The notes under the pieces: generated by a model | What the model saw: the letters and a program-made list of their open reading frames with translations, nothing else | The model's database searches: none | What the model was told of the DNA's origin: nothing | Program-made: the position numbers and the translations under genes | Part shown: in pieces, positions 660 through 24,302 of the stretch | Position numbering within the stretch: the stretch's first letter is position 1 | Layout of the letters: each line of letters begins with the position of its first letter | Assembly (NCBI GenBank): GCA_964418245.1 | Contig: CAYQKW010000003.1 | Span: 2,977 to 66,976, forward strand | Source: an uncultured Oscillospiraceae bacterium | GTDB lineage: Bacteria; Bacillota; Clostridia; RUG12999 | DNA length: 64,000 nt | Direction of reading: 5' to 3'

Positions 660-686
660 AACCCATTTATCACGGAGGTTGGAAAA

Positions 687-2749: not shown

Positions 2750-2816
2750 ACCGCCATATTTTCGGCATAACTTTGAACGATACCTATAGCACAATAGCAT
2801 AAAGCGAGTGTTCGGC

Positions 2817-2850
2817 ATAATGCAATGCGGCTTTAGCCGCATTGCATTAT
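2817..2850 (+). terminator. Rho-independent terminator between convergent esterase and ptsI genes
   Basis: Perfect 15-bp stem ATAATGCAATGCGGC / GCCGCATTGCATTAT with loop TTTA, followed by TGTTTTT on the + strand. The ptsI stop codon (2833-2835) sits in the loop and its last codons lie in the right arm, so the hairpin may also act on the minus-strand transcript. Confidence 0.6.
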
Positions 2851-7788: not shown

Positions 7789-7851
7789 ATAATCATTCCT
7801 TTCCCGTCCGCGGATATTTTACGGACACATTTATTATATACCGACAATATT

Positions 7852-7880
7852 ATTTTATAACACAATCTTTGTTTTGTCAA
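7852..7880 (-). promoter_or_regulatory. sigma-A-type promoter upstream of gpr-recG
   Basis: On the minus strand: TTGACA (7880-7875), 17-nt spacer, TAAAAT (7857-7852), about 60 nt upstream of the gpr ATG. Prediction by consensus match only. Confidence 0.4.
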
Positions 7881-7904
7881 GAATTTTCTTTTTTTACTCA
7901 ATAC

Positions 7905-7949
7905 GGGGCTGTGACAATACGATTTTTAAAATCATTTTGTCACAGCCCC
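7905..7949 (-). terminator. stem-loop downstream of locus A (13-bp stem, no clear U-tract)
   Basis: GGGGCTGTGACAA (7905-7917) pairs with TTGTCACAGCCCC (7937-7949) around a 19-nt loop. Starts 7 nt after the stop of the last locus A gene. The absent U-run lowers confidence. Confidence 0.35.
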
Positions 7950-7955
7950 AATAAT

Positions 7956-10900
7956 CTATTTTATTAAAATTGTATCAACAATTTTAATCACTTCGCCGCG
8001 CGTTGCACATCCAAAAGGTTTTATTCCCTCGCCGTCGCCATGTATAAGTCCGCTGTTCCACGCACGGTTTAATGCATTGTAGCACCGATATGTTGCAGAT
8101 GTCAAATCCATCGGCGGTTCCGACGCACCATTCCCTTCCGGAACCATTTCCGCATAATCTGCCATAGCCATAATGCACGTTATCATATCTTCCCTTGTCA
8201 TAAAGCTGTTCGGGTTGAAATTTTCCGTTATATAAGCCGGGAGAATATTATTTTTAATTACATAATCGACTTCGTCCGAATATTCTTCGGATATATCCGT
8301 CTCAGATTTTTTAAGTTTTATAACTCGTGTAACGATTTTAATCATTTCATCGTAAGTGATATTATCGTCCGGACGAACATTTGCATTGCCGTCGCCTTTT
8401 ATTATTCCGACTGCCGCAAGATGTGCCGCATAATCTCTCACCCAATGATTCACGGTATCCGCAAAAATTACGTTATCCGGATTGTTATCCGATACCGTAA
8501 CATCGAACTCAAACGGTTCCATATCCGCAGCGGTATAAACCGTAAGTTTATAATCGCCCGCCATTTTTGACGTATCTATATCCAGATTATAAGTATAATC
8601 ATCGTTTATACCGGTTGTGAAAATTTCACTCTTTCCGTTTTCTCCGAGTATTTTCACAAACATCTTTTCAACATATTCAAACGGCATAAGTCCGCTTATG
8701 TTTATCATTCCGGTTTCTTCGTTATACTCGGTTTCGCAAGTCATGTCGCTTAAGAGATATTTTATAACACTCTGACCGAGCCATGTTGCACCGTTCACGG
8801 TTGTCATCGGAATATAAAGCATTCCGCTTTCTTCGTTCCAAACAGAGCCTGCCGCTTCCATTTTCTCATTAATACCGAAATTCACCGTTATATACTTTTG
8901 TTCCGGATTTTGCATAACCACTTCATATCCGCTGGCGATTTTACGCACCATTATCATACACGGTCTGTCTACACTGATTTTTTTGGAATCGCCAAATTCC
9001 AGTTCGCCCGCTTTTCTGAATACCGCCTGAAGAACTTCGCATTCGGGATGATAAACCGCCTGTACTTCGGTGTCGTTACGCAATATCTGGACTTTCGGTG
9101 CTTTTGCATATTCCGCAACATATTCCATGTTTTCGCCCGGAACCAAAATATATGTGTATGTACCGCCTTTTGGATTTGTTCCGTGTTCTATACCGGCACT
9201 GAACACTTCTTTTGTTACATACGGTTCTCTTTCGTCGCCTATTCTTAAGCCGTTACCTGTTTGACTTTTGTTTGCAAACGAAATTGTTTGTTCTCCGGGT
9301 GTGATATATCCTATATTATCATGATATACCCATTCCGCATTTTCCACCGTAAGTTTTGTTTCCTTTTCAAGCGTTTTAACTTCGCCGCCCACACTGTAGC
9401 TAACATCACCGTCAAGATTACATTGGTTCATGGAAGTATACAGCGGATTTGCCGAAACACTTTTTATTCCGGCACCGAGTGCCACCACTTCGTCATCGAA
9501 AAAGAAATATGATTTTTTTGCATCAACTTCGCCGTATGTATCGGAGTAGTCCGATGCCGCAAAGCCGTATTCTCCGTCCGAGGCAACGCCGTGGAAGCTG
9601 TTATATCCGTAGTTTATGTTATTTCCGTATGCGTTTGTCGGTAATTCCGGTACGTTATCGTCCGACTGAACGGCGGTAAGTCCCGGTATTCTGTCCCAAT
9701 CCCACACTTTCGGCACGTCTATATATTCTTGTCCGTCGGTGAAAATTGCAAGTCCGTTACCCATATAATATTGGTTGTTTCCGTCCAAATTCAATTTTTC
9801 ACTTCTGAGCAAACGATTTGACGTACTTTTGCTTGAAGCATAGAATTTTTCACGGTGATGCGACATGAAATCACTGTTCCAATATGCCTTGTTACCCGTT
9901 ACATAACTGTGTGATTTTTCTGTATCGTTTAAAACGGCATCTCTCAATGCGATGAGTTCGTCACGTCTGGGCATTGTGGGTTCTTCGAGTAATCCGTTTA
10001 TGTAATATACAAGATATTGTTCACGTGTTCCGTTTCCTCTTTCCAAAGTACGACCAAGCGACCAAAATTCGGCTCCCTCACCTCTTCTTGACCATGCAAA
10101 GGAATCAAGCACCATATCTGCCAAAACCTGAAGTTTTTCCACCGGTGCGGCAAATTCCGTTCCGGCAGCATATTTCAATATAGGCAATACACCGTTCATC
10201 CACTGGTTGCCGTATCCTCTCAAATAAAGCATTTCCCCGTGTGCCAAATATGTGCCGTCCGGATATATTCCTTGTCCCATATAATGGCTTTTGTCCTGTC
10301 TGTCCAATATTGGCGATGCACTTTCGCCGTCCTCATAACTCGCAATACCGTCACCATAGGTTTTCCAATCGTTTGTACATTCTTCAAACATCATTCTGAG
10401 CGTATCTTCTTCGTTATATATAGCCGCAATATACCGCCACATTGTTGCCGTAACCGTTATGTTGTTGTTTGCTGTACAGAATCGATATGCTCCGTTTTCA
10501 CGTTCTTCCCATTTTCTGAAATACCATTCTCTTGCTCTTGAAAGAACATTGCTCGGAATTTCAATTCCTTCCTCCATCAATGTACATATTATTTCTCCCA
10601 GAACAGTAGGATATGCAATCCAATCGTCCCAGCCGCTGTTGCCGGCTCCGACATCGTCAAACTCCGCAAGACAAAAATACTCAAGCGATTTTCTTATTTT
10701 TTTAAGCAATTCCGCATTATGATAATTTTCCGTACTCGGTGCAACATAGCTACTCACAAGCGACGACAAACGTGCCAGGTGCGTTGCTCTGCCCTGCGGT
10801 TCCGCATAGTTTACATCTGAAAACGTGCCGTTATCCTGCAACAGTTTAACAAATTCCGGGTCATATGTTTTTACATAATAAGTATTACCGGCGGAATTTA

Positions 10901-11024
10901 CATACGACTGCCACACATCGGCTCTGATACGCTGTGAAATAATCTCCACATCGCTTTCCGCAAAAACCGGAACTGCGGACAAACACATTAATACCGTCAG
11001 CAATAATCCTATAATTTTTTTCAC
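7956..11024 (-). CDS. secreted polysaccharide lyase family 8-like enzyme with three C-terminal SLH cell-wall anchoring repeats
   Basis: Start set to GTG 11024 (GGAGG 9 nt upstream; signal peptide VKKIIGLLLTVLMCLSAVPVFAES). The ORF-track extension to 11090 overlaps the upstream gene. PL8 catalytic His/Tyr block YPDGTYLAHGEMLYLRGYGNQW (His-x8-Tyr-Gly as in hyaluronate, chondroitin AC and xanthan lyases) plus WDWDRIPGLTAVQ. C-terminal SLH repeats start at FADTVNHWVRDYAAHLAAVGIIKGDG and DLTSATYRCYNALNRAWNSGLIHGDG. Confidence 0.8.
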   Translation of the reverse strand: MKKIIGLLLTVLMCLSAVPVFAESDVEIISQRIRADVWQSYVNSAGNTYYVKTYDPEFVKLLQDNGTFSDVNYAEPQGRATHLARLSSLVSSYVAPSTENYHNAELLKKIRKSLEYFCLAEFDDVGAGNSGWDDWIAYPTVLGEIICTLMEEGIEIPSNVLSRAREWYFRKWEERENGAYRFCTANNNITVTATMWRYIAAIYNEEDTLRMMFEECTNDWKTYGDGIASYEDGESASPILDRQDKSHYMGQGIYPDGTYLAHGEMLYLRGYGNQWMNGVLPILKYAAGTEFAAPVEKLQVLADMVLDSFAWSRRGEGAEFWSLGRTLERGNGTREQYLVYYINGLLEEPTMPRRDELIALRDAVLNDTEKSHSYVTGNKAYWNSDFMSHHREKFYASSKSTSNRLLRSEKLNLDGNNQYYMGNGLAIFTDGQEYIDVPKVWDWDRIPGLTAVQSDDNVPELPTNAYGNNINYGYNSFHGVASDGEYGFAASDYSDTYGEVDAKKSYFFFDDEVVALGAGIKSVSANPLYTSMNQCNLDGDVSYSVGGEVKTLEKETKLTVENAEWVYHDNIGYITPGEQTISFANKSQTGNGLRIGDEREPYVTKEVFSAGIEHGTNPKGGTYTYILVPGENMEYVAEYAKAPKVQILRNDTEVQAVYHPECEVLQAVFRKAGELEFGDSKKISVDRPCMIMVRKIASGYEVVMQNPEQKYITVNFGINEKMEAAGSVWNEESGMLYIPMTTVNGATWLGQSVIKYLLSDMTCETEYNEETGMINISGLMPFEYVEKMFVKILGENGKSEIFTTGINDDYTYNLDIDTSKMAGDYKLTVYTAADMEPFEFDVTVSDNNPDNVIFADTVNHWVRDYAAHLAAVGIIKGDGNANVRPDDNITYDEMIKIVTRVIKLKKSETDISEEYSDEVDYVIKNNILPAYITENFNPNSFMTREDMITCIMAMADYAEMVPEGNGASEPPMDLTSATYRCYNALNRAWNSGLIHGDGEGIKPFGCATRGEVIKIVDTILIK

Positions 11025-11025
11025 G

Positions 11026-12285
11026 TTAATATACCTCCGTTCCCTCAATAGCTCCGTTCGATATATCCGCCGTAAACGCCGCATATGCAAGACTTAAATC
11101 TCCGTCGAACACAAACACTTTGATTTTTCCGCTCTGCGGTATGTTTTCCGTAAGCGTTATTTCTTTTGCCGTATCGTACGCAAGTTCTTCTTTGATTGAT
11201 TTTACATCCGCAAGCATACCGTCGGAATTATAGGTACACACAGTAAACACTGCCGTACGGTTTTCCGGCCAGCTGCTCGTGATATTGATTTTGCCGTCGG
11301 CACTTATATCACCGAATTTATACAGCGGTTGATTTTTTGTGAAGAAGCTTATATCCTCCGCATCATATTTAAGGCTGCCGTCCTCCGACAAAAGCCCGGT
11401 CATCACAACAATGTAATTTCTGCCGTATTCCAACTCATTTTCAGGCACAACGGTTACGTTTTTGCCCTCTGCCGAAACAGCTGCAGAAACAACTTCATCA
11501 TTGTCTTTTTTCAATATTACATTTGTTTTTGCACTTTCCGCATCAACAGTGTGCGAAAATTCCAGTTTTATTTCTTCCGTGTTTTGCGGAATTACATCTC
11601 CGGATTTAACGCTTGAATCCTTAACCGTAATTCTGTCCATTACATATGTTCTGTAATGTCCCATATATGCAACATCGGCATTATCCACAGAATTGTTCTG
11701 CCCGTTTTTGATTTCCAGCCAAGTTCTCACATTTTCCACACTTGTGGTATCATTCGGTTTTGTTTTGGTTTGAATTTCTCCGTCAATATACAGTTCGTGA
11801 GGTTTTATGCCGGAAACTTTGCTACCTGCGATAGTTGTGTTTTCCATATCCAGTACATAAGTTATTCTGTGCCATTCGTTCTGCGTGATTGAAATTGCAC
11901 CGTAACCGGTTACGGTTATCGCATTTCCGTTATATGTAATTGTGTTGTTTTCAAAAATTCTGAGAGGTGCGATGAGTTTTTTTGTTCCTTTAAGCGTGAA
12001 ATCCAAAACAATATATTTTTCATTCGCATAACTTTTAAGTGACGTTCCGTCAAAACACGGATGTTTTGAATTTCGGCTCGTATCGAAAACCGCTGTATCT
12101 TCCTCAAAAATCGGCAATTGCTGCCAAGACTTTGTCGGCTTGTCGTTTTCCGCCTCGGTAAAACTCCAGTTATCTATGTAATATGCCACCGGGAACAGTT
12201 CCGTATCATCATCCGCAACCTCTGCGTATACCATACCCGTACATAACATTACCGCTATTATAATTATCGAAAAAATCTTTTTCAA
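11026..12285 (-). CDS. secreted protein: one jelly-roll-like domain + Ig-like domain + shared C-terminal module; function unknown
   Basis: TTG start overlapping the upstream stop (TTGA), with AAGGATGG RBS. Signal peptide MKKIFSIIIIAVMLCTGMVYAE. Domain with YYIDNWSF ... AYMGHYRTY (aa 29-216) matches the repeats in the two upstream genes. The Ig-like segment resembles SbsA-type domains. The C-terminus (FTVCTYNSDGMLADVKS...KIKVFVFDG) matches the module at the ends of three other proteins. Confidence 0.7.
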   Translation of the reverse strand: MKKIFSIIIIAVMLCTGMVYAEVADDDTELFPVAYYIDNWSFTEAENDKPTKSWQQLPIFEEDTAVFDTSRNSKHPCFDGTSLKSYANEKYIVLDFTLKGTKKLIAPLRIFENNTITYNGNAITVTGYGAISITQNEWHRITYVLDMENTTIAGSKVSGIKPHELYIDGEIQTKTKPNDTTSVENVRTWLEIKNGQNNSVDNADVAYMGHYRTYVMDRITVKDSSVKSGDVIPQNTEEIKLEFSHTVDAESAKTNVILKKDNDEVVSAAVSAEGKNVTVVPENELEYGRNYIVVMTGLLSEDGSLKYDAEDISFFTKNQPLYKFGDISADGKINITSSWPENRTAVFTVCTYNSDGMLADVKSIKEELAYDTAKEITLTENIPQSGKIKVFVFDGDLSLAYAAFTADISNGAIEGTEVY

Positions 12286-15200
12286 CTTATACCATCCTTT
12301 CCTTTTGGAAAAATAACCGATGCCGTTCTCGGAAGATTATGATTTCCATCGCTCCACACAAACATTTTTATGCTGCACGAAGAATTGATTGCTTCCGCTT
12401 TCGGAATTTTAACATTTATATCGGCAGCCGTTTTGCCTTGCAGCGTATATTTATTTTCCGTTACGCTTAACAATTTTCCGCTTTTATCATACACTGCCGT
12501 ATATAGTTTTATATTTTCGCCGTTATCGCTGTATAATTTTATTTCGGCTTCCATATTGCCGCCGCAAAGTTCGGAAATTAAATTCCCGTCATCATTCCTC
12601 ACGGAAAGCGGATATACGGCAATATCCGTTCCCGTTTCCGTATATACATCCGTAACGCTTTGTCCGGCATAAAGTCCCGTTCGGTTTGTAACGGTTGTTT
12701 CGCTCATGCCGTTTTCTTCGTTATACGTCATATTATTCAATCTTTTATTTATTGCAAACTTAACCGAAATATTTTCGTTTTCGGGATTTTGCATCGTTAT
12801 CTGATATGCGCCGTTTATTTTTCTCACCATGACTATGCAGGGTCTATCGACGCTTATTTTTAATCCGTTTTCGGTTTCCACCGTGCCGTTTTCATAGAAT
12901 ACGGCTTGAAGAATATCGGATTTTTTATTGTATACTGCTTGAATTTTGCTTGTGTTCATGCAGATTTCAATATTGTTTTCGTTTTTATATTTCAAAAATT
13001 CTTCTTTTGATTTACCCGGAACCGCTATATAAGCGTAATTTCCATCATCTGACTTATTATTAATCGTCAGGCTGAATATGTTGCGTGTATAAGATTTTCC
13101 GGAAGAATGCGAAACACCGTTTCTCATTCCGTTACCTGTCTGTGCCTTATCCGATATGCAGATATTCTGACCGTTCGGCAGTATATATCCTATATTCGCA
13201 TGATGTACCCATTCAACGTTATCCGCCGTATATTCCGTTTGTTTCTCAAGCATTTTTTCTTTTCCGTTTTCTCCGTATATAACGTTTCCGTCCAATATAC
13301 TCTGATTTACGGAAGTTGCTATTTCGCCCTCGGCACCATCATCAAGTGATATTCCCGCTCCGAGTGCAACAATTTCGTCATCAAACATAAACCACGCTTT
13401 TTTTGCGTTTACACCTGTCTGTTTAACGTGATAATCCATTGCGGACACACCGTAATATCCGTCTGAAGCACCGCCCGAAAAACTTTTTTCACCGAAACAT
13501 TCGCTTTCGGAAAGCTCCGCAATTGCAGGCACATCTCCGTCCGTCTGTACCGCCGTAATACCCGGAAGTCTGTCCCAATCGAATACGGGAAGCACCTCCT
13601 CATATTCTTTGCCGGTTACATAAAGCTGAAGTTGTCCGTCCGACATATAAAAATTGTTTGTTCCGTTTTCGCCCAAAGTTTCGCTTTTTAATGTGCGGTT
13701 ACTTGTTAGTTTGACTGCCGCAAAATATCCGTCCCTGTGATGTGCCGTAATATCGCTCGTCCAATAATGGCGGTTACCTCGCACATAACTTTGCTCCTTG
13801 TTTTCCTCCAATTCCGTCAAAAGCTGTTCCAGCTCCGCTTTTCTCGGAATATTCGGTTCTTCAAGCAGATATTTGCAAAACAGTTTCAAATCCGTGCTTG
13901 CACCGTTTGTTCCTTTACCGCTCGACACAGCATTTGTGATACTTCTTTGCAGCCCCGTATATTCACTGTTTGAACCTCGCATAAGCCAGCGATAATTTTC
14001 GAGCAAAAATCCAGACATCTGCGAAAGTTCCTCTGCCGTGAACTGCCTTTGCGTTCCTACGGCATATTTTATGTATCTGCAAGTTCCGCCCAGCATAAGC
14101 TGTCTGCCGTATCCAAATGTATAATGCATGGGACCGTGTTCAATATAACTCCAATCGGGATAGAGTCCGCTGCCGAAATAGCTTTTACCACGCACTTCGG
14201 TATATCCCGTTTCATTATCTTCAACACCGTATTCTCCGCCGTCCGTATGGTTATATGTGCCTTTTAACACATTATCGTAAATCAAATCAATATATTTTGT
14301 ATCGTCAAACACAATTGCAAGATATTGCCATATTGATGCTGTTGTGGAACAATTTGAAAGTGCATAACAAAATGTTTTTGCATTGCCGTCCGCCCTGTGG
14401 CACAAGTCGAACCAATATGTATCGGCTTCATACAATATATCTTTTGGAATATCCACACCCGAAATAACAAGATAATACATTGATTGTGCCAACTGCGACG
14501 GTACGTTCATCCAAAGGTCCCAACCGCCGGATGTTCCCACAGTGTTTATTTTATATTCTTTACTTGCAAAAAACCTTAATGCTTCAAGTGTCTTTTCAAG
14601 CAATGTTTCATCTTTGAAAAAAAACGATTTTTCGTATGCATAAGCTCTGCTCATCTCTGCCGTGCGTGTTATATGTGTCATTCTGTCCACAGCCGATGTG
14701 TAATTCAAATCCGAAAACGTTCCGTCCGCAGATACGCTGCCGATATATTCGGAAACAGCCGTATCATCGGAAGAATTCGGTTTTAAATCTTCTTTTATTC
14801 GTTCAAGTATTATTCTTTTATCCGCTTCAAGTTTTGCCGCCGTTTCGGCATCCGTTTTAACCGGAGGTTCTGCCGCAAGCGGAAGATAAATACGCAGATA
14901 ATCCATATACATTTCAACTGTGCCTGCCGTTGAATGATTCTGTACTATAATCATTTTGCGGTTATTGTTGAACATGGCACTGTCCATTTCCTTATTCAGC
15001 TTATATTCCGTATTGTTTATTGTGATTGATTTTATAAGTTTTTCGCCCAAATTCATTTTGACTTTTATATCATACCACATATTTTCTTCAACGGCATATC
15101 CAGTGTTGCTTATTGTTGCCGCAGAGTTTCCGCTGCTCGGAGTTATTGCGAAAAGCGTCATGAAATATTCCGTTGCAAGTCCCAATCCGCCGGTAAACTT

Positions 15201-16625
15201 TATTGACGTTTCAAAAACCATTTCACCGCTTTCGCCCTTCCATAAATAAGGAACTTCAAATCCCGTGTTTACATCGTTTTCCGATACGGAAAATTTTGCG
15301 GCGGTTTTATCCTCATAAAATACGGTTTCGGGGAACTCGGAAAATGCCTTAAGTTCATACGGAATACGGTAAAAATCCGCATTCACAAGATATTTATCGG
15401 CATTATAGCTTGTATATATTTTATAATAATCCATATACACCGCTTCTTCCGTTTCGGACGGTTCTATAAAATTACGGCGATTGGAAATTGATAGGGTGTC
15501 CGTGTTTTGCGGAAGATATTCTCTGCCGTTCACAATGAGTTTCACGGGTTTGATATTTTCCGCACTATCGCCCGTTACGATTTTTTCACTCATATCCATA
15601 ATGAGAACAACTGTATGCCACCGTCCTGCGGTTGCCGATATTGGATTAAATCCTTTTACATTCAGAGTATCGCCGTTATATTTTATTTGATTTGCATCGA
15701 GCAGATGCAATGTTTTATTCATTTTCTTTTCGGCTTTCACACGTGTTTCAAAAACTGCGTAACCGCCATCTTTGTTCACCCAATTTTTAGGTATAAACCC
15801 CGTGTTTGCACCGTTTGCATAAGCATTGAATTTAACGGTTCCGTCCTTTATACGTTCGGGAAGTACGTTGAATGCCGTTTTCGGCATATCTTCGTCCGTG
15901 TCGAATTTTATGTTTTCAATCATTTCAACCACCGGATATGCTTCTCGATTTTCGTCTGCGGAATCGTATTTTTCGTCATATACCGTATATGTTTTAAAAT
16001 AATCCATATAAAGTATATCTCCGTTTTTTGCCAAAACATCATTTTCCTTTAACGGTTCAATGAAATTTCGTCTGTCTTTCAGTGTCATTGTATCGTTATT
16101 TGAAGGTGTATATTCACTGCCGTTCACGGTTAGGCTTATCGGTTTTATATTTGATACCGTGTTTCCCGTTACTACTTTTTGGCTTATATCGAGTATAAGC
16201 CGTATTTCATGCCATTCACCTACAGTGAGCGATATTTTGTCAAATCCTTTAACATTGAGCTGCGAGCCTTTGTAATATATTTGAGCTGTATCGAGTATGC
16301 GGAACGGATTTTTCATATCCTGTTCGGCTTTCAGGCGTGTTTCCAAAACAACAAGGTCGTTTTGAATATCCGACCAGCCCGAAATTATAAATCCCGTGTT
16401 CTTTCCGTTTTTGTTCGGGTCAAATTTTCCGGCAACAACTCCGTCTTTGGTTACAAGTTCCGGCAATACCGAAAAAGGAGTTCCGGGTGAATCGTTCACC
16501 GACGAAAAATCCCAGTTATCTATATATTCGCCGACAGGATATTCCGTTTTCTGTGCGTACACACCGAACATCGGTATGAAAACCGCTATCAGCAATATTG
16601 AAAATATTTTTTTCAATTTTCTCAT
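12282..16625 (-). CDS. secreted multidomain PL8-like polysaccharide lyase: three N-terminal jelly-roll-like repeats + PL8 core + shared C-terminal module (no SLH)
   Basis: Signal peptide MRKLKKIFSILLIAVFIPMFGVYAQ. Repeats at aa 28-215, 229-407 and 411-581 (EYIDNWDF...LYMDYFKTY; ...VYMDYYKIY; ...MYMDYLRIY). PL8 block LYPDWSYIEHGPMHYTFGYGRQL and FDWDRLPGITAVQ. C-terminal LYTAVYDKSGKLLSV...SIKMFVWSDG. Confidence 0.8.
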   Translation of the reverse strand: MRKLKKIFSILLIAVFIPMFGVYAQKTEYPVGEYIDNWDFSSVNDSPGTPFSVLPELVTKDGVVAGKFDPNKNGKNTGFIISGWSDIQNDLVVLETRLKAEQDMKNPFRILDTAQIYYKGSQLNVKGFDKISLTVGEWHEIRLILDISQKVVTGNTVSNIKPISLTVNGSEYTPSNNDTMTLKDRRNFIEPLKENDVLAKNGDILYMDYFKTYTVYDEKYDSADENREAYPVVEMIENIKFDTDEDMPKTAFNVLPERIKDGTVKFNAYANGANTGFIPKNWVNKDGGYAVFETRVKAEKKMNKTLHLLDANQIKYNGDTLNVKGFNPISATAGRWHTVVLIMDMSEKIVTGDSAENIKPVKLIVNGREYLPQNTDTLSISNRRNFIEPSETEEAVYMDYYKIYTSYNADKYLVNADFYRIPYELKAFSEFPETVFYEDKTAAKFSVSENDVNTGFEVPYLWKGESGEMVFETSIKFTGGLGLATEYFMTLFAITPSSGNSAATISNTGYAVEENMWYDIKVKMNLGEKLIKSITINNTEYKLNKEMDSAMFNNNRKMIIVQNHSTAGTVEMYMDYLRIYLPLAAEPPVKTDAETAAKLEADKRIILERIKEDLKPNSSDDTAVSEYIGSVSADGTFSDLNYTSAVDRMTHITRTAEMSRAYAYEKSFFFKDETLLEKTLEALRFFASKEYKINTVGTSGGWDLWMNVPSQLAQSMYYLVISGVDIPKDILYEADTYWFDLCHRADGNAKTFCYALSNCSTTASIWQYLAIVFDDTKYIDLIYDNVLKGTYNHTDGGEYGVEDNETGYTEVRGKSYFGSGLYPDWSYIEHGPMHYTFGYGRQLMLGGTCRYIKYAVGTQRQFTAEELSQMSGFLLENYRWLMRGSNSEYTGLQRSITNAVSSGKGTNGASTDLKLFCKYLLEEPNIPRKAELEQLLTELEENKEQSYVRGNRHYWTSDITAHHRDGYFAAVKLTSNRTLKSETLGENGTNNFYMSDGQLQLYVTGKEYEEVLPVFDWDRLPGITAVQTDGDVPAIAELSESECFGEKSFSGGASDGYYGVSAMDYHVKQTGVNAKKAWFMFDDEIVALGAGISLDDGAEGEIATSVNQSILDGNVIYGENGKEKMLEKQTEYTADNVEWVHHANIGYILPNGQNICISDKAQTGNGMRNGVSHSSGKSYTRNIFSLTINNKSDDGNYAYIAVPGKSKEEFLKYKNENNIEICMNTSKIQAVYNKKSDILQAVFYENGTVETENGLKISVDRPCIVMVRKINGAYQITMQNPENENISVKFAINKRLNNMTYNEENGMSETTVTNRTGLYAGQSVTDVYTETGTDIAVYPLSVRNDDGNLISELCGGNMEAEIKLYSDNGENIKLYTAVYDKSGKLLSVTENKYTLQGKTAADINVKIPKAEAINSSCSIKMFVWSDGNHNLPRTASVIFPKGKDGIS

Positions 16626-16673
16626 CCTTTCCTTTTTTTCGGTTTATGCCGAAACTGACATATAATCATTGTC

Positions 16674-16695
16674 GGGCGGACAGGGTCGTCCGCCC
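16674..16695. repeat. GC-rich hairpin repeat, copy 2 (same element, oriented on the minus strand)
   Basis: GGGCGGAC-AGGGTC-GTCCGCCC on +, which is GGGCGGAC-GACCCT-GTCCGCCC on -. Lies in the 96-nt gap between the 962-aa and 1447-aa genes. Confidence 0.7.
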
Positions 16696-16721
16696 CACGT
16701 TTTTATTTTTCGCTTATGCGA

Positions 16722-19610
16722 TTATTTTTTCGGGAATGTATCTGCTGCCGCTACGGGTTTAATTGCATTTATTCCGTCCCAGAACAGAACTTTAACTTCC
16801 GGATTTGTTATTTCGGACGGAACGGATATTTGTGCCGTTATTTTTCCGTTTTCCGAATTATATGTGCCTTTTGTTACAGATACAAGTTTGTTTCCGCTGT
16901 AAAGCACTGCCGCTACGGCTTCAGGTGCAGATTTTATTTCCGCATTCACATCAACGGATATGTTGAGTATTTCGCCGAGTGCAAGCGCAGTTGCCGTTTC
17001 TCCGTTTTTGTCCGTATATTTCGGAGCTGAAATATAATCGTTGATTTTATATGATTTCATATAATCCATATACATTATGTGCGATTTTGTTTCAGTGAGT
17101 TCCGCATCAGTTTTACCCTCAACATAATATCTTGTTGTATTGCTGCCGCTTGCGGTTGAACGGAATCCGTTTGCTATATCGTATTTTGTTCCGTCTATTG
17201 TGATTGTGAGATATTTTTTGTTATCGTTATCAACCACAACTTCAAATGTATGCCATTCACCGAATGCTAAATCTTCAACAATATTACTCTCGCCATCGTA
17301 AAGAGATACTGCAAGCGTATCTTCACCGTTTTCCTCCGATGCGGTTTTGGCTTTAAGATCTATAATATTTGCCAAGCAATAGCTTGATGCTCCGTCATTT
17401 TCCGGTATCATAACTTTTGTTTCTATCGCTACCGTACCCGTGCCGTCGCCCGCATATATTTCAAATCCGCCGTTTGCACCTTTCGTTCCCGTATAAGCTG
17501 TGAGTTTAACCGCTTTTGTTCCATCTGACAGCGTAACCGCTTCACGCTTACCGTCGTGGAATTTGTTTCCTGCTTTTACATCAAATTCATAATCATAGAT
17601 AAGGTCTTGCATTGTATATTTGCTTGTACCTGCGAAAGCATATGCTTCTTTTTCAATTGTGTAAGCTTTGTAATAGTCAAGCCAAAACTCAATATTGTCT
17701 TTATTATTTTCAATATATACGGTATTTGCGTTTCTGTTCTTATTTGCCGATGTCCATACAATATTATTCTGTTCAAGATTAATTTCGCTGTCACCTACCG
17801 CAAGCTTAACCGCTTTTAAATTACCGTCTTCCTCAAATGTGCTGCGGTCAAGAACAAGTGATACATCATACCAAACGTTTCTGTCTATTCCTGTATTATA
17901 AGCACCCGTATCAGACTGAAGTCTGAGTATTGCTTCATCGCCGTTTCCGACAACTCTTACCATAGCACCGAAAAGACATATATTTTTCGCATCTGTATTT
18001 CCGAATTTTAATCCTGTTTCAAGAACAACGTAATCTTCTTTCATATCGGCAAATTTAATATCATCGTAAAATCCGATGTTGGAATATGAGTTATCTGCTT
18101 CTTTTGCATTGTTTGAATTGAAATACACAACTCCTTTGCCGTTTTCTGTCGTCATAACCGGAAGTATACCTTGTGCACCTGTACTTAAATCGCCTTTATA
18201 ATCAAAATCTCTGTTCACAATCATATTTACCGGAGTATATTTTGTTGTGGTTTTAAGATATGTTGCATCATCTTCAACTTCTTTTGAATCGGCAATATAT
18301 GTTTTGTAATAGTCCATATATACTATATCTGCTGTTGTTGCCGTATTATTTTTATCAGTTGAATTTATCCACATTCTGTTATGAGCATTTCCGAAACTTA
18401 TATCGTTGTTATTACTCGGTTTATATTTTTCACCGTCTATATACATGAGATACGGTTTCATACCCGTAATTGAATTATTGGCATCTGCTGTTGCATTTTC
18501 GATATTCACAACATAAACAACATTGTGATATGTTTTTGCTTCAAGTGCAACGTTTCCAAATCCCGGCACTTTAAGCGATTCGCCGTTAAAGCTAAAGTCA
18601 TTGCTATTCCATATACGCAAATAGTTTTTCAATTTTGCATCTGACTTCACCGCAAACTCAAGAACAAGGAATTTATTTTTACCGTCAATATAGTTTGAAA
18701 TGTGTGAAGCATGAAATCCCGGATTTTGGTAAGTTTTTCCATCAACAGTTTTAACTTCTGTATTGAAAATTGCTTCATCATTTTCAAAAGTTACAAGTCC
18801 CTGCCATGCTTCTGTAGGTCTGTTGCCCTCGGAGAAATCCAAATTATCAATATATTTACTTACAAGATATGTTTCTCTGTCCGTAATAAGTTCAGTTACT
18901 GCTGCTTCCGTTGTTGTATATGTTTTATAATAATCCATATAAACAATACCGTCTTGAGTGAACACATTGTTTACCTTATAAGGTTCAATATAGTTTCTTC
19001 TGCTTTCAACCGATATGACGTCGGTTTTTGTCGGAATATATCTTTTACCGTTCACAACAAGTGCTGTAGGTTTGATGTTCGATACTTTTTTTACAGTATC
19101 GTTATCGTTGTATGTAAGTTCTTTTGCACTCATATCCATTACAAGTGTAATTTTGTTCCATACATTTGCGGCGAGTGTTATTTTTTCAAATCCCGGTACA
19201 GTAACGGATGTGCCATCATATTTTATTTGATTTCCGTCAAGAATACGCATGGTTTTTTCTGTTTTTTTATCAGCTTTTATGCGCAAATCGAAAACCATGT
19301 ATTTATCCGATACATTTTCCCAAGATGAAGATTGAAATCCAACGTTTGTTTCTTTTGTATACGCATCGAATTTTGCCGCCGTAACGCCGTCCTCGGTTAC
19401 GAGATCGGGCAGTGTCAGAAATGCAGTTTTGGGAGAGCTTTCCGCATCATCAAAATCCCAGTTATCGATATAATTCACAACCGTCATTCCGGAACTTGAT
19501 GTGCCGGCAGAGCCGCCTCCTCCCGATGATGTGTTTTCTGCCGCAGAAACAGAAATAATACTGCCTGCAAGCATTGCCAGAGTAAGTGCCAATGATAATA
19601 ATTTTTTCAT
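16722..19610 (-). CDS. secreted non-catalytic protein made of four tandem jelly-roll-like repeats + shared C-terminal module
   Basis: Signal peptide plus Gly/Ser stretch (SAAENTSSGGGGSAGTSSSG). Repeats at aa 43-232, 248-439, 457-651 and 664-856, each ending in (V/F/M)(Y/W)(M/L)DY(Y/M)K(T/A/S)Y. C-terminal AAVLYSGNKLVSV...VKVLFWDG. No catalytic motif recognised. Confidence 0.75.
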   Translation of the reverse strand: MKKLLSLALTLAMLAGSIISVSAAENTSSGGGGSAGTSSSGMTVVNYIDNWDFDDAESSPKTAFLTLPDLVTEDGVTAAKFDAYTKETNVGFQSSSWENVSDKYMVFDLRIKADKKTEKTMRILDGNQIKYDGTSVTVPGFEKITLAANVWNKITLVMDMSAKELTYNDNDTVKKVSNIKPTALVVNGKRYIPTKTDVISVESRRNYIEPYKVNNVFTQDGIVYMDYYKTYTTTEAAVTELITDRETYLVSKYIDNLDFSEGNRPTEAWQGLVTFENDEAIFNTEVKTVDGKTYQNPGFHASHISNYIDGKNKFLVLEFAVKSDAKLKNYLRIWNSNDFSFNGESLKVPGFGNVALEAKTYHNVVYVVNIENATADANNSITGMKPYLMYIDGEKYKPSNNNDISFGNAHNRMWINSTDKNNTATTADIVYMDYYKTYIADSKEVEDDATYLKTTTKYTPVNMIVNRDFDYKGDLSTGAQGILPVMTTENGKGVVYFNSNNAKEADNSYSNIGFYDDIKFADMKEDYVVLETGLKFGNTDAKNICLFGAMVRVVGNGDEAILRLQSDTGAYNTGIDRNVWYDVSLVLDRSTFEEDGNLKAVKLAVGDSEINLEQNNIVWTSANKNRNANTVYIENNKDNIEFWLDYYKAYTIEKEAYAFAGTSKYTMQDLIYDYEFDVKAGNKFHDGKREAVTLSDGTKAVKLTAYTGTKGANGGFEIYAGDGTGTVAIETKVMIPENDGASSYCLANIIDLKAKTASEENGEDTLAVSLYDGESNIVEDLAFGEWHTFEVVVDNDNKKYLTITIDGTKYDIANGFRSTASGSNTTRYYVEGKTDAELTETKSHIMYMDYMKSYKINDYISAPKYTDKNGETATALALGEILNISVDVNAEIKSAPEAVAAVLYSGNKLVSVTKGTYNSENGKITAQISVPSEITNPEVKVLFWDGINAIKPVAAADTFPKK

Positions 19611-19673: not shown

Positions 19674-22391
19674 TTATCTGTAGATTACGCAGCCGTATCT
19701 TGCATCGCCGTAATTACGGAACGATGTGAGATATATTTTATCGCCTATGCGTATATCTTTAACATTAGCCTCTGTAAGTTTTGTTTTGCCGTTTTCACAA
19801 ATAAGTACGCTTCCGTCCGTTCTTGTGATATGGTTTGTTCTGTATTTAATTGTCCATTTATCCATGCCGTCTTTGGCAACGCTGTCCAAATCTCTCATTG
19901 TTATTTCAACAACATAAGAAGATGCATCCTGCATAACAACCGCCGATACTTCACCCATCATTGCAAAACGCTGATATATAACAAGGTCGGAAGTGTTATC
20001 TCGGCAGTTTATGGCGTGTCCTGTTACAGAACTGTTATAGAACGTTGTGAAACCATTATAACATTCAACCGGGTCAAACTGATTCATTTTTCCGTCTTTC
20101 ACAGATGCATAAAAATATTTTATCTGGTTGAGTGTATCCGGCCAAGCAAAAATTACGTCACCGCGTTTTAGCGTTTTTGCCTGTTCTTCAACCTCTTCCG
20201 TAAACGTGTATGTATACGGTAATTTATTCACATATCCGTCCACTGCGACCAATATTTCGCCGTCTGCTCCGAGTGTTTCGTACACTCTGTTCACAACAAT
20301 TGCAGACATTCTTGTGCAGTCGTATGTAACGGGCGAACCCATATCCAGTATTACGGTTGCGGTACCATTTGCCTTAATATCATACAGCCAAAGTGTTCTT
20401 TCGTCAGCAGTGAGAACAGCCGTACTTCCGGGCCGCACCTCGTACATGGCTTTTTTATCCAAATTATCTTTTGTCGGAACCGTCATATACGTTCCTTTAT
20501 TTATGGCATACAAACCACTCAATTCATCCGGAAGTGAACCGCTTCCGAGTGCCATTATATGATGATGATTTGAGATTAACGACTTTGAATTTTTCCAGTT
20601 TACGGAAAAATAATCATTGCCGATGTTACCGATTTCCTCTGCCGCAAGTTCAATTTTCACGATTTTATTATCATCGTTTGTGTGATAAATAATCAACTGA
20701 TTAATTGTTTCTCCGTTTGTTGTAAGCATATTATATGCTTCCGACGGTGAAAACCTTGACGACTGAAAACCTTGTTTAATCGTTATTTTATCGGTTGATT
20801 CAAGTGTTATAAACTTGCCGTCTATTGTATAAAGTTCCGTAATAAGGCTTCCGTCCAGTTTGTTGGTATCAAGTCTTGCTTTTCTTAAAAACGCATAATC
20901 GGCGTTTACGTTTGTAATTTCAAAATCCGCCGTGTTTCCGAACGCATCCATATAAAAAACATATTTCTGACCGAGCGTAAGGTCTTGCATTTTTGGTTTT
21001 GCATAAGGATTGAGCCTTAGCGTTTCCGTTTCGGTTGAAAAGTATTCGTCGTCGATTTTACTGCTTGCCGTTTCGGTTTTGGCAATATCCGAAAAATATA
21101 TTTTCATTGCCGAACCGTCTTTCGATTCTGCCGCAGCAATCACGCTGTTTGCCGTGAAATATTCATACATTTGTTCTTTATCCGCAATATCAATCGGTGT
21201 ATTCTCTACAAAAAACGTAAGTGCCGACAAATCGCAGTTCTGTGTGCTGACGGATTCCGAAGCGTCATCACTGTAAATAATCTCGTCCTCAGGAATCGCT
21301 CTGCCGATGCGCATTGTTTTGTAATCATTCACAATTGCCGCATCATATTTCCCGTCGGAATTATTATCCACAAATGTTGTATCGCCGTATTTCGGCATCA
21401 TATCGGCAACCGTTGCTTCAAAATAATATACGCCGTTATAAATTACACTTACATTATCGGCAAGCGAAACCTTTTTCTCTTTATCGTTTTCGGTATAATA
21501 AACCGTTGACATTGTTGACTGTGTACGTTCAAAATCATCATAGGTTATTGTCACTGAGTCTGTTTTTTTGGGCAATGCAAAAACAAGTTCAAAATCCCCA
21601 CCCGAATTTTCGTAAGCATAATATTCAACATTATATCCCAAGAGGTCGCGCTGTGACATATTCGTTACGATAAACTTTTCGCCGTTTATTTCAAGAGCTG
21701 ATTTGCCTGCGGACTTTGTTGTTTTTATGCCTGTTCTGCTGTTTGCCGTGACAATACCTTCGCCGAATTCGATATTATGATATTGTGCCAGCAATGTTTT
21801 ATCTTTTTTTAATTCATACTCCGACCCAAAAATCTTGTATGTTGCCGTTTGTGTGCGCATTGTATTATAAATCAGCTTTGCGAGCGTTCCTTTTGTCATA
21901 TAACTGCCGCTGACCCCCGAAGATATACCGAGTTCCGATGCCGTCAGTGCGTATCCCACCGGATAACCGCCGTTTGCTTTCGCTTTATCTTTATATCCGA
22001 GTGCGGTTACAAACACTTTATATGCATCGTTTGTCGCAATAAAATCCTCAGGTTCAAACTTGCCGACCGCATTGCCGGACATGAGCCCCATTGAGCAGAC
22101 AGCCGAAATATAACCGTAATGCTCGCTGTTTTTATCGACATCGCCGAATGCAAGCTCTTCTGTTCGCGGTTCTGCATTCAAAAGTTTGCAAACGATTTTC
22201 GCAAATTCGGCACGGGTTACCTTGTTATCCGGATTAAATGAACCGTTTTTTCCGTTTTCCATAAATCCAAGACCGACAACAACCTCTGCTTTATCGAACA
22301 TAATTTCTTTCGCCGCGACTTTCGGAACGGCAATTGCCGCCGAAAACAGGCATATTGAAATCAACATTCCCATTATTTTTTTAAATTTCAT
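19674..22391 (-). CDS. secreted surface protein: three N-terminal SLH repeats + ~700-aa beta-rich region of unknown function, C-terminus ...GCVIYR
   Basis: Signal peptide MKFKKIMGMLISICLFSAAIAVPKVAA. SLH signatures (KVTRAEFAKIVCKLL; FGDVDKNSEHYGYISAVCSMGLMSGNAVGKFEP; TKGTLAKLIYNTM). Paralogous in architecture and C-terminal VIYR to the 876-aa protein at 44626-47256. Confidence 0.75.
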   Translation of the reverse strand: MKFKKIMGMLISICLFSAAIAVPKVAAKEIMFDKAEVVVGLGFMENGKNGSFNPDNKVTRAEFAKIVCKLLNAEPRTEELAFGDVDKNSEHYGYISAVCSMGLMSGNAVGKFEPEDFIATNDAYKVFVTALGYKDKAKANGGYPVGYALTASELGISSGVSGSYMTKGTLAKLIYNTMRTQTATYKIFGSEYELKKDKTLLAQYHNIEFGEGIVTANSRTGIKTTKSAGKSALEINGEKFIVTNMSQRDLLGYNVEYYAYENSGGDFELVFALPKKTDSVTITYDDFERTQSTMSTVYYTENDKEKKVSLADNVSVIYNGVYYFEATVADMMPKYGDTTFVDNNSDGKYDAAIVNDYKTMRIGRAIPEDEIIYSDDASESVSTQNCDLSALTFFVENTPIDIADKEQMYEYFTANSVIAAAESKDGSAMKIYFSDIAKTETASSKIDDEYFSTETETLRLNPYAKPKMQDLTLGQKYVFYMDAFGNTADFEITNVNADYAFLRKARLDTNKLDGSLITELYTIDGKFITLESTDKITIKQGFQSSRFSPSEAYNMLTTNGETINQLIIYHTNDDNKIVKIELAAEEIGNIGNDYFSVNWKNSKSLISNHHHIMALGSGSLPDELSGLYAINKGTYMTVPTKDNLDKKAMYEVRPGSTAVLTADERTLWLYDIKANGTATVILDMGSPVTYDCTRMSAIVVNRVYETLGADGEILVAVDGYVNKLPYTYTFTEEVEEQAKTLKRGDVIFAWPDTLNQIKYFYASVKDGKMNQFDPVECYNGFTTFYNSSVTGHAINCRDNTSDLVIYQRFAMMGEVSAVVMQDASSYVVEITMRDLDSVAKDGMDKWTIKYRTNHITRTDGSVLICENGKTKLTEANVKDIRIGDKIYLTSFRNYGDARYGCVIYR

Positions 22392-22394
22392 TTG

Positions 22395-24302
22395 CTACCC
22401 CTCACTTTTGGTTAAATCAAAAAACTGTGCCGCAACTTTGCATATTGCCGCTCTGCTGCATACGGATTTTGGCATAAACATATTTTCTCCCACTCCGTTT
22501 ACAATGCTTTTTTCCCACAAATACGCAACCGACGATACAGCATAATCACTTATGAGATTGCTGTCCGCAAACTCCGGGGTTCCAAACGGAATATCAATTT
22601 TTTCCGTATATTGTTTTGCTCTGCACATAAGCACACACATATCCTCGCGTGTGAGAAATCCATCCGGATTAAATTCCGTTTCGCTCACACCGTTTATGAT
22701 TCCTGCCGAATACAGTCTGTTTACATAATCCGCATACCAGCTGTTGCTGTTTATATCATCAAATTTAATACGATATTCGCATTGCGGTATTTTTATTATA
22801 TTTACAAGAATTTTTGAAAATTCCGCACGTGTTACGGGGTCGTTCGGGCGGAATTTACCGCCATCTCCGTTCACTATATCTTTTTCTGCAAGTGCATTGA
22901 TATATATTTCCGCCCACGGAGCTTCATTAATATCATCGAACTTCAATGTTGTTGTTTCTTGCTTTGTGTTCGGAGCAATATATGCCGTGCCGCCGCCCAA
23001 ACTTGTGCTGTTTCCATTGCTTCCGCCGCCCGAACCGCCGCCCGAACCGCCGCCCGAACCGCCGCCGATAGTGCCGGTATTGGTTACATCCGCAATTTCT
23101 TTTGCAAGTTTTGCGGATATATCTGCGGTTGACGAATAGGTATTGACTGCCGCCATTCTTGACAAAACATCGTTTTTCTGCGAATCCGTAAGTTTTTCAT
23201 CAAGTTTTTTAAGGCTTTCTTCAATATTTAAAATTTCAACTTTTCCGACTTTATCAAAATATTTTAAAATATCATATACATTTGCATTTTTACTTTCGTT
23301 CATTGCCGTCACGGCAACCGCGTCGTAAAAGTTTTTATACAACTTGTCCGAAGTCTGCGGATTTACTTTTGCTATATAGTTCATTACGGCATCCTTGCCC
23401 GAAAGCCCGTTATAATATCCGTCTTCCGACGTATCTATTCCGAGTGCCGTTGCATAATTCGGAGCCGTGCTTTCCAAAAAAGCTTTTTTATCCGCTGTTT
23501 TAAGATACATAACCATTGCCGTTTCGCGGTCTATTCCCTTTTCAATATCGTCAAATACCGCATTTTCAAGCAACACAAGGTTTTTGTGCATATTAATCAT
23601 TACAGTTTTCTGTTCTTCTGCGGAGAGTGCATCATACGTATCGGCAAGAGAAAAATTGATTATAATTTTATAATCATTATAAAAGCCTACCAAGTCTTCT
23701 CCGAGTGTATCGCCTTTTGCGTCAAGTACCGCCTCAACATAGTTGTCTGCATTGCGATATACAAATTCGCCCGAATTAACCGTTTCTCCGGTTGCTGCAA
23801 AATACACATATTCCCCGTCCGAAAAATCTTTCAAATCAACGGTAAACTCGGTTTTATCCGCAATTTTTTCCGCACGAACGGCAACGGCATCGGCAACATC
23901 ATACAACTTGAAATCTGTTCCTTTTGCGTTGTCCTTTTTATAAACCGAAAGTGAGGCATATGCATTTTCGCCGTTCGGTTTTACGGATACCGTCAAGGTT
24001 TTTTCGGAATAGCTTACAGCATGGGTTGTTTCTTCAAGTGTTGACGGATTTTTTGTTACAAGAATATATAAATTGCATTCTTCGCCGCCGTTTAAGTTCC
24101 CTTTAACACGAATCACACCTTCGCTATCCGTGTTCACGCTTTTCTTATCCCAATCAACAGAGTGGATACCGCCGTTGTATTCCACCGTCGGCGGCAAGAT
24201 TAAATTTTCTCCCACTCTTATGTTTTTCGTTATATCAAAAGCATTTACGGAAAGTGATGTCATCAGCAGCAAGCTTGCGGCAATTGCTGTTTTTATTTTC
24301 AT
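22395..24302 (-). CDS. secreted surface protein: beta-sandwich N-terminus + helical region + (GGGS)n linker + three C-terminal SLH repeats
   Basis: Signal peptide MKIKTAIAASLLLMTSLSVNA. Linker GGGSGGGSGGGSGGGSNGNS. SLH repeats FDDINEAPWAEIYINALAEKDIVNGDG, FDDINSNSWYADYVNRLYSAGIINGVS and FADSNLISDYAVSSVAYLWEKSIVNGVG. Confidence 0.75.
   Translation of the reverse strand: MKIKTAIAASLLLMTSLSVNAFDITKNIRVGENLILPPTVEYNGGIHSVDWDKKSVNTDSEGVIRVKGNLNGGEECNLYILVTKNPSTLEETTHAVSYSEKTLTVSVKPNGENAYASLSVYKKDNAKGTDFKLYDVADAVAVRAEKIADKTEFTVDLKDFSDGEYVYFAATGETVNSGEFVYRNADNYVEAVLDAKGDTLGEDLVGFYNDYKIIINFSLADTYDALSAEEQKTVMINMHKNLVLLENAVFDDIEKGIDRETAMVMYLKTADKKAFLESTAPNYATALGIDTSEDGYYNGLSGKDAVMNYIAKVNPQTSDKLYKNFYDAVAVTAMNESKNANVYDILKYFDKVGKVEILNIEESLKKLDEKLTDSQKNDVLSRMAAVNTYSSTADISAKLAKEIADVTNTGTIGGGSGGGSGGGSGGGSNGNSTSLGGGTAYIAPNTKQETTTLKFDDINEAPWAEIYINALAEKDIVNGDGGKFRPNDPVTRAEFSKILVNIIKIPQCEYRIKFDDINSNSWYADYVNRLYSAGIINGVSETEFNPDGFLTREDMCVLMCRAKQYTEKIDIPFGTPEFADSNLISDYAVSSVAYLWEKSIVNGVGENMFMPKSVCSRAAICKVAAQFFDLTKSEG
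23023..23067. repeat. perfect 12-bp tandem repeat (3 full units + partial) encoding the Gly/Ser linker
   Basis: CCGCCGCCCGAA occurs three times (23023-23058), then CCGCCGCCG. In frame within the 635-aa gene. Confidence 0.9.

Follow-up and report, generated by a model that had tools for sequence, protein, structure and literature searches.

An unclassified concanavalin A-like repeat in a polysaccharide lyase family 8 cassette of an uncultured gut Clostridia bacterium, a candidate carbohydrate-binding module

Three adjoining genes encode eight copies of one repeat

The window analyzed here is a stretch of 64,000 nucleotides (nt) of contig CAYQKW010000003.1 (GenBank assembly GCA_964418245.1) from an uncultured Oscillospiraceae bacterium, and its subject is a repeat of 171–195 amino acids (aa) encoded in it. 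A run of genes on the minus strand contains three adjoining open reading frames (ORFs), of 962, 1447 and 419 aa, that carry the repeat, and all three translations start with a hydrophobic leader of the Sec type. The 1447-aa protein is also a lyase of polysaccharide lyase family 8 (PL8). The repeat genes and the individual copies are as follows.

16722..19610, minus strand: secreted protein of 962 aa with a signal peptide, repeats A1–A4 and a C-terminal domain (ORF and translation)
19542..19610, minus strand: putative Sec signal peptide of the 962-aa protein, MKKLLSLALTLAMLAGSIISVSA (sequence pattern in the translation)
12282..16625, minus strand: secreted protein of 1447 aa with a signal peptide, repeats B1–B3, a PL8 lyase and a C-terminal domain (ORF, Pfam and NCBIfam)
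11026..12285, minus strand: secreted protein of 419 aa with repeat C1, a Big_5 immunoglobulin (Ig)-like domain and the shared C-terminal domain (ORF and Pfam)
18915..19484, minus strand: repeat A1, 190 aa, of a subtype common to B1 and B2 (alignment; leave-one-out E 4e-54)
18294..18869, minus strand: repeat A2, 192 aa, with C1 as its nearest paralogue (alignment; leave-one-out E 1e-33)
17658..18242, minus strand: repeat A3, 195 aa (alignment; leave-one-out E 1e-11)
17043..17621, minus strand: repeat A4, 193 aa, the most divergent copy (leave-one-out E 2.5e-5, full length)
15981..16544, minus strand: repeat B1, 188 aa (leave-one-out E 1e-56)
15405..15941, minus strand: repeat B2, 179 aa (leave-one-out E 1e-51)
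14883..15395, minus strand: repeat B3, 171 aa, immediately before the lyase (leave-one-out E 2e-12)
11638..12201, minus strand: repeat C1, 188 aa (leave-one-out E 9e-36)

The eight segments are in frame and can be aligned from end to end, with pairwise identities of 16–51%. As a guard against circularity, a profile hidden Markov model (HMM) was built from seven copies at a time and searched against the ORFs of the window in all six frames. In each of these eight leave-one-out searches, the copy that had been set aside was regained at full length (E values of 2.5e-5 to 1e-56), and no ORF of the window beyond the repeat proteins scored with the repeat HMMs. The landmarks common to the copies are (Y/M)I(D/E)N.(D)F, N.GF, V(F/L)E(T/F).K, WH/WY and YMDY(Y/F)K.Y, and the residues conserved across them are F13, K72, W111, D181, Y182 and Y186. 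Among these, K72, Y182 and Y186 are nearly invariant, and no polar residue outside the conserved set is conserved across the copies. All copies are net acidic, with pI values of 4.5–5.8.

A first-pass annotation, made from the DNA sequence of this window, had described about ten copies and characterized the 962-aa protein as made almost only of them. Eight copies were detected at the intervals that it had given, while the two further copies that it had placed in a second locus (locus B, see the last section) had no significant match to the repeat. Its characterization of the 962-aa protein is fair. The HMM envelopes in this protein (residues 43–232, 248–439, 457–651 and 664–855) coincide exactly with the limits drawn earlier, so that the repeats and the short linkers between them make up residues 43–855, and the remainder comprises the signal peptide and a C-terminal domain of ~105 aa. 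Neither a catalytic domain nor a Pfam or NCBIfam family was found in the 962-aa protein when both libraries were searched. The linkers between repeats are of 4–17 residues. Altogether, the earlier observation is partly confirmed, being essentially right but with eight copies rather than ten.

At the DNA level, the sole repeat across the three genes is a stretch of 33 nt that encodes the terminal YMDYYKTY strand and is 76–91% identical in five of the eight copies.

15412–15444, 15985–16017, 17047–17079, 18295–18327 and 18916–18948: sites of the 33-nt repeat (DNA-level repeat comparison)

A recent duplication of DNA is ruled out, since repetition at this level is limited to the 33-nt motif, and the duplications that gave rise to the copies are thus old.

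Predicted fold

AlphaFold2 was given an alignment of 36 copies, drawn from the proteins of the window and from homologues. Both models obtained, that of the most typical copy, B1 (mean pLDDT of 96.8, pTM of 0.91), and that of the most divergent one, A4 (pLDDT of 86.9, pTM of 0.86), are all-beta with about 15 strands. In Foldseek searches of the two models against the Protein Data Bank (PDB), concanavalin A (ConA)-like or laminin G (LamG) jelly rolls accounted for nearly all of the top 50 matches; the exception among the matches of B1 was 5ly8, a phage module of carbohydrate-binding module (CBM) family 2 at rank 48, which was left unclassified. The top matches of B1 were the PL14 alginate lyase vAL-1 (3a0n) and the PL36 lyase Aly36B (6kzk), with E values of about 1e-4, and its further matches comprised BT_1020 sialidase, the HC-N domains of botulinum and tetanus toxins, the lectin domain of Vibrio cholerae sialidase, the CBM40 of NanA, neurexin LNS domains, members of GH131, GH16 and PL20, and SO2946. 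The matches of A4 included legume lectins and the lectin domain of V. cholerae sialidase. The latter structure, 2w68, gave the highest TM score with A4 (0.57) and one of 0.50 with B1, for which BoNT/A HC (5tpb, 0.53) ranked above it.

On these models, the repeat is clearly a predicted member of the concanavalin A-like lectin/glucanase superfold, a curved jelly roll of two sheets with about 13–15 strands, and no solved structure is a close relative of the repeat. The likeness to LamG/ConA-like lectin folds, which the first-pass annotation had read from the terminal motif, agrees with both models and with the Foldseek matches, and a common fold was found for the most typical and the most divergent copies. 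The matches are nevertheless remote (E values of 1e-6 to 1e-3, TM scores of 0.3–0.57 and identities of 7–16%, at a Foldseek probability of about 1.0). As all of them are weak, with TM scores of at most 0.57, no function can be transferred to the repeat from any structural match.

Standing of the repeat among curated families

Whole proteins and single repeats were searched against Pfam (models up to 2025, to an E value of 10) and NCBIfam (2026), and no repeat reached the threshold of any family. The nearest Pfam family is SO2946-like_C (PF22237), itself of unknown function, which matched one of the eight copies, B3, below its cut-off (E of 8e-5; 23.1 bits against 27). Its solved structure, 2a5z, stood at rank 40 among the Foldseek matches of B1 with a TM score of 0.49. 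Laminin_G_3 (PF13385; threshold of 27.6 bits) matched neither the proteins nor the single repeats at E values up to 10, and there was no Pfam match to Sialidase-like_CBM (PF22585)/CBM40. Profiles of eight and 36 sequences had no significant match among all PDB sequences (2026). The leading entries, both non-significant, were the LamG proteins neurexin-1 alpha (E of 0.012) and pikachurin (E of 1.5). The CBM40 structures 2w68 and 4c1w were not among these profile matches, so that the similarity to CBM40 is structural only (TM scores of 0.38–0.57), and no match to CBM70, for which a sequence similarity of at least ~30% to SpCBM70 was the criterion, appeared among PDB sequences at E values up to 10. 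Literature searches found no description of the repeat family.

The earlier statement that no named family fits the repeat therefore holds for Pfam, NCBIfam and PDB sequences, none of which matches every copy, or any copy, with confidence. Judged against these three and the literature, with the CBM models of CAZy (dbCAN) outside the comparison, the repeat appears to define a sequence family that is so far unclassified, although modules of its kind are well known. It agrees with the CAZy sense of a CBM as a discrete fold within a carbohydrate-active enzyme, three copies with a confidently predicted fold being placed before the PL8 core.

Distribution and conservation of the copies

When all 1.84 billion cluster representatives were scanned with HMMER for the eight-copy profile, 20 proteins had E values below 0.001, and these were divided into nine true full-length members, seven remote ConA-like proteins and four spurious ones. 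A tenth true member, P0005, came from a single-sequence search and is a second PL8 lyase with three copies. The database holds a protein identical to the 962-aa protein (P0001) and two homologues of it with four and five copies (P0002 and P0003, respectively). P0004 is a PL8 lyase with three copies. In three other PL8 lyases, P0007, P0008 and P0009, the copies detected number one, five and four, respectively, and P0006, P0013 and P0016 are homologues of the 419-aa protein. In the source records, two members (from metagenome-assembled genomes [MAGs] of Clostridia) are named "hypothetical protein," and the eight other clusters looked up are unnamed. Pfam assigns Laminin_G_3 or Sialidase-like_CBM domains to the seven remote proteins (P0015 and P0017–P0022), and in P0018 a heparinase II/III-like lyase is preceded by Laminin_G_3 domains in tandem.

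P0010–P0012 and P0014 were rejected as spurious, as these Bacteroidota proteins match only 45 positions of the profile. They consist of dozens of ~50-aa 'NGNTITTAGVYRDTL...CDSF' repeats, and their apparent significance stems from many weak matches summed. Family models built from the repeats described here should beware of such 'NGNTITTAGVYRDTL...CDSF' proteins.

About ten clusters in 1.84 billion indicate a lineage-specific elaboration rather than a widespread family that had been missed, and the significance of the family is limited by its rarity. In a scan of 185,579 species-representative genomes for the terminal motif, none of the 46 pattern matches was confirmed as a member, as far as the motif can detect one. 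On the known sequences, the family is confined to a narrow lineage of uncultured gut Clostridia. The RecG encoded in the window shares 86% identity with its counterpart in the closest species-representative genome, a Clostridia MAG (uncultured) from a Hadza gut metagenome, and at most 59% with any other. In this relative (positions 1–3000 of locus L005, compared with 6913–11090 of the window), gpr and recG are present but no PL8 gene lies beside gpr. Because of this arrangement, and because no member was found in the representative genomes, the locus looks like accessory DNA.

Copies at corresponding positions in different genomes are 44–86% identical, as compared with 16–51% between paralogues, and the order of the copies is conserved, except that P0003 has one extra copy in the third place. 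As positional orthologues are closer to one another than paralogues are, the arrays are old, and each position is kept by selection.

The three repeat proteins share a further element, a C-terminal domain of ~70–105 aa with the pattern ...Y..dGkL..V... followed by vKvFvWd. The three domains were linked by jackhmmer when homologues were included, but not in a search limited to the sequences of the window, and no other ORF of the window has the domain.

16725..17039, minus strand: shared C-terminal domain of the 962-aa protein, ~105 aa (jackhmmer with homologues)
12303..12590, minus strand: shared C-terminal domain of the 1447-aa protein (jackhmmer with homologues)
11029..11358, minus strand: shared C-terminal domain of the 419-aa protein (jackhmmer with homologues; a weak match to DUF7447 at an E value of 0.004 is the only one in Pfam)

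No S-layer homology (SLH) anchor was found by Pfam in the three repeat proteins, although their neighbors have SLH domains. Since the repeat proteins lack SLH, the shared C-terminal domain may retain them at the cell surface or dock them to partners.

The PL8 lyase and the surrounding cassette

The genes and domains around the repeats are listed below.

12762..14174, minus strand: PL8 core of the 1447-aa protein, residues 818–1288 (Lyase_8 at 8.8e-65, Lyase_8_C at 2.4e-17 and Lyase_8_N at 1.8e-16)
11395..11631, minus strand: Big_5 bacterial Ig-like domain of the 419-aa protein (Pfam PF13205, E of 7e-9)
7956..11090, minus strand: second PL8 lyase, 1044 aa, with an SLH cell-wall anchor and without repeats (Pfam Lyase_8 domains and SLH)
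19674..24302, minus strand: two SLH proteins, of 905 aa (19674–22391) and 635 aa (22395–24302), with SLH as their only Pfam match and the same position in loci L001–L004
24315..30343, minus strand: ABC sugar importer (binding protein and two permeases) and an AraC-type regulator (Pfam SBP_bac_1/8, BPD_transp_1 and HTH_18)

As the first-pass annotation had it, three copies precede a PL8 core in the 1447-aa protein: Lyase_8_N, Lyase_8 and Lyase_8_C all score above their Pfam thresholds there (60.6, 219 and 63.6 bits, respectively), and the helical domain of the core probably begins upstream of the start matched by Pfam. By these matches, the enzyme is taken to be a bona fide member of PL8. The solved structure nearest to the core is Pedobacter chondroitinase AC (1hm2/1cb8; E of 9e-70), followed by xanthan lyase (E of 3e-27). 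We left the substrate unassigned, because the match to the NCBIfam chondroitinase-AC model (299 bits) is below the equivalog cut-off of 1000; the evidence fits a uronic-acid-containing polymer that is possibly fucosylated.

The same cassette was found in every readable locus (L001, L002 and L003/L004), and the order in the window is identical. The genes for the ABC binding protein and two permeases are followed by those for an SLH protein of ~630 aa, an SLH protein of ~900 aa, an optional multi-repeat protein, an SLH-less enzyme with repeats and PL8, a protein of 420–440 aa with one repeat and Big_5, and an enzyme of ~1030 aa with PL8 and SLH. Upstream, the window also encodes a GH29 fucosidase and an AraC-type regulator. 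The extra genes are those of a GH95 enzyme in L001 and of a GDSL esterase and a GH88 unsaturated glucuronyl hydrolase in L002. L001 and L002 are two paralogous whole cassettes of one genome, GCA_054297345.1: one is close to the version in the window, and the other is divergent, with a lyase bearing four repeats and with the GDSL esterase and GH88. No recognized domain besides SLH was found in the 905-aa and 635-aa proteins when they were compared with Pfam and PDB sequences, the significant PDB matches being confined to the SLH regions; two short, marginal PDB matches at residues ~395–440 of the latter look like chance.

Possible function of the repeats

We favor, with moderate confidence, the reading that the repeat is a non-catalytic ConA/LamG-type carbohydrate-binding module, used multivalently in a Gram-positive polysaccharide-utilization locus (PUL) built around the two PL8 lyases. 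The considerations behind it are the lectin fold, the gradation in sequence into Laminin_G_3 and sialidase CBMs, the position N-terminal to a lyase, the number of copies, the linkage to PL8 cassettes only, and the size of the domain. As to size, 171–195 aa is typical of LamG and CBM40 domains and lies below the chains of 214–267 residues in the jelly-roll enzymes that were matched, and the Foldseek matches include the carbohydrate binders 2w68, the NanA CBM40 (4c1w) and legume lectins. Multivalent substrate binding, which the first-pass annotation had suggested, may reasonably be deduced from the fold, the position and the number of copies. Altogether, we regard the functional reading of the repeats as reasonable and the first-pass interpretation as partly supported.

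Under such a scheme, B1–B3, placed ahead of the lyase core, would direct the 1447-aa enzyme to a uronic-acid-containing substrate or keep it attached there. The 962-aa protein with its four copies and the 419-aa protein with one copy and an Ig-like domain would be catalysis-free glycan binders, secreted or at the surface, that capture the polymer or its fragments and supply the adjacent ABC importer, with avidity arising from copy number. Because each positional copy is conserved across genomes as an orthologue of its own, the copies may differ in recognition, possibly of different features of one complex glycan. A bolder version, which we hold to be rather improbable, is that each positional copy has its own specificity, with the arrays thereby recognizing several features of a single complex acidic glycan, and that the shared C-terminal domain docks the three SLH-less proteins onto the two SLH proteins. 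The result would be an undescribed surface degrading complex of Gram-positive gut bacteria that is free of cohesin and dockerin.

Several observations weigh against a role in carbohydrate binding. The copies are acidic, as opposed to the basic groove of the hyaluronan-binding CBM70 (PMC4175358), and thus a simple electrostatic capture of an acidic polymer is not favored; the electrostatic case for polyanion binding fails for all copies alike. Furthermore, the best Foldseek matches of B1 are the jelly-roll lyases of PL14 (3a0n) and PL36 (6kzk) and not CBMs, and all structural matches are weak.

The lyase-like matches of B1 raise the question of whether the repeats, or some of them, are themselves small jelly-roll enzymes with catalytic activity (PL7-, PL14- or PL36-type lyases, or GH16-like hydrolases), in which case the 962-aa protein would be multi-catalytic. 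The matches of B1 to PL20, GH131 and GH16 point in the same direction, as does the near invariance of K72, Y182 and Y186, given that a Lys and a Tyr were mutated in Aly36B complexes (K143A/Y185A in the title of the PDB entry). Still, these matches have TM scores of 0.39–0.49 and identities of 9–13%, the enzyme chains exceed the repeats in length, A4 matches lectins and CBM40 best, and no polar residue is conserved across the copies beyond the set described above. The conserved Lys and the D-Y...Y motif are also present in non-catalytic Laminin_G_3 and sialidase-CBM relatives such as P0017 (ETRVK ... YDYIRIY), and are therefore probably determinants of the fold. We consider a catalytic role very improbable. 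Hardly more probable is that the similarity among the copies is compositional or due to chance, or else that the family is an already defined CBM or DUF. The profile did draw the spurious repeat proteins P0010–P0012 and P0014, and the comparison with curated families covered Pfam and NCBIfam but not dbCAN. On the other side stand leave-one-out E values down to 1e-56 over the full length of the domain, confident models of a common fold, the lack of significant matches in Pfam, NCBIfam and PDB sequences, named members that are called "hypothetical protein" and a literature without a description of the family.

A more serious alternative, although we judge it unlikely, is that the repeats are structural or protein-binding modules, either a rigid stalk that lifts the lyase past the S-layer or LamG-type domains that assemble a surface complex. 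The best, non-significant, PDB sequence matches are indeed LamG/LNS domains of neurexin, the conserved residues are generic landmarks of the fold that also occur in remote Laminin_G_3 relatives, the SLH-less repeat proteins are encoded beside two conserved SLH proteins without any other recognized domain, and linkers of 4–17 residues fit a stalk of the beads-on-a-string type. A stalk, however, has no need of a separate four-copy or one-copy protein, and strong divergence from one position to the next, combined with conservation at each of them, looks like specificity and not like spacing. In addition, bacterial ConA-like modules fused to glycan-active enzymes, such as CBM40 and CBM66, are usually carbohydrate binders, as is generally known for CAZy families.

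If the repeat is a carbohydrate-binding module, its nearest counterparts can be sought among known systems. To the Laminin_G_3/ConA-like superfamily it is linked by its fold (AlphaFold2 and Foldseek), by strands of the form hydrophobic-E-x-R/K-x-K and W-H/Y-x-hydrophobic-x-hydrophobic-x-D with a terminal Y-x-D-x-x-x-x-Y, and by the Laminin_G_3 domains that the weakest true matches of the 1.84-billion scan carry; it differs in lacking a Pfam match and in its low identity (7–16%) and TM scores (at most 0.57) to the solved members. CBM40/Sialidase-like_CBM, as in the sialidases of V. cholerae and pneumococcal NanA, is nearest in size and fold, being a ConA-like jelly roll of ~190 residues placed N-terminally on an enzyme that acts on an acidic sugar, but it has no detectable sequence similarity to the repeat, and the partner here is a PL8 lyase instead of a sialidase. 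As far as the title of PDB entry 2w68 tells, multivalent arrays of CBM40 raise affinity.

CBM70 is a hyaluronan-binding, non-catalytic beta-sandwich at the N-terminus of the surface-presented pneumococcal PL8 hyaluronate lyase, with 161 residues, a 5+5-strand sandwich resembling CBM4, a basic groove and a single copy (PMC4175358). The repeats likewise precede a PL8 lyase as putatively non-catalytic beta-sandwiches, but they are ConA-like with ~15 strands, acidic and present in 3–5 copies, and have no PDB sequence match; identity with CBM70 is ruled out by size, strand count and charge. The jelly-roll lyases of PL14 (vAL-1), PL36 (Aly36B) and PL20 share the superfold, include the top Foldseek matches of B1 and act on uronic-acid polymers. 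Their chains of 238–267 residues are nonetheless longer than the repeats, the TM scores are 0.39–0.49, and A4 prefers lectins. Lyases of the PL7/PL14/PL36 kind would be expected to have roughly 240–270 residues and a conserved catalytic Lys/Tyr (or His/Tyr/Gln/Arg) along the cleft; the repeats have 171–195 residues, and the K72, Y182 and Y186 that they conserve recur in non-catalytic relatives.

Non-catalytic proteins with multiple CBMs are familiar from PULs, as the surface glycan-binding proteins (SGBPs) of Bacteroidota and, in gut Firmicutes, surface proteins with several CBMs. The 962-aa and 419-aa proteins resemble them in being secreted, in having no catalytic domain, in consisting of putative binding modules and in being encoded between enzymes and an importer, but they are unrelated in sequence, carry neither a lipoprotein nor an SLH anchor and are composed of unclassified modules.

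If binding is confirmed, a new CBM family would be founded on these repeats. The locus supplies natural multivalent arrays of 3–5 copies, and the catalysis-free 962-aa protein could be used to probe for its ligand or as an affinity reagent when that ligand has been identified. The repeats also mark a conserved and wholly uncharacterized PL8 cassette in uncultured Clostridia of mammalian guts. Candidate substrates of the cassette are a host glycosaminoglycan, a dietary gum and a microbial exopolysaccharide.

Locus B

The first-pass annotation had further taken the N-termini of two proteins of locus B as divergent copies of the repeat, a claim that the searches did not support. The N-terminus of the 507-aa ORF at 39199–40722 gave an E value of 0.9 with the repeat HMM and a probability of 16% in hhalign against the 36-sequence repeat profile, and that of the 1079-aa ORF at 47256–50495 gave nothing with the HMM and an hhalign probability of 1.5%; neither had a Pfam match. 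These N-terminal regions of ~180–220 aa end in ELDDVYAY and YYLDDIKIETYY, respectively, like the last strand of ConA-like domains, and for this reason they may represent another unclassified lectin-fold module.

Also in locus B, a 975-aa protein (36245–39172, minus strand) has no Pfam family and adjoins a 1322-aa heparinase II/III-like enzyme with F5/8 type C domains (40719–44687). The minus-strand ORFs at 33777–34610 (277 aa) and 34370–35338 (322 aa) overlap by ~240 nt; probably one of their starts is mis-set or there is a frameshift.

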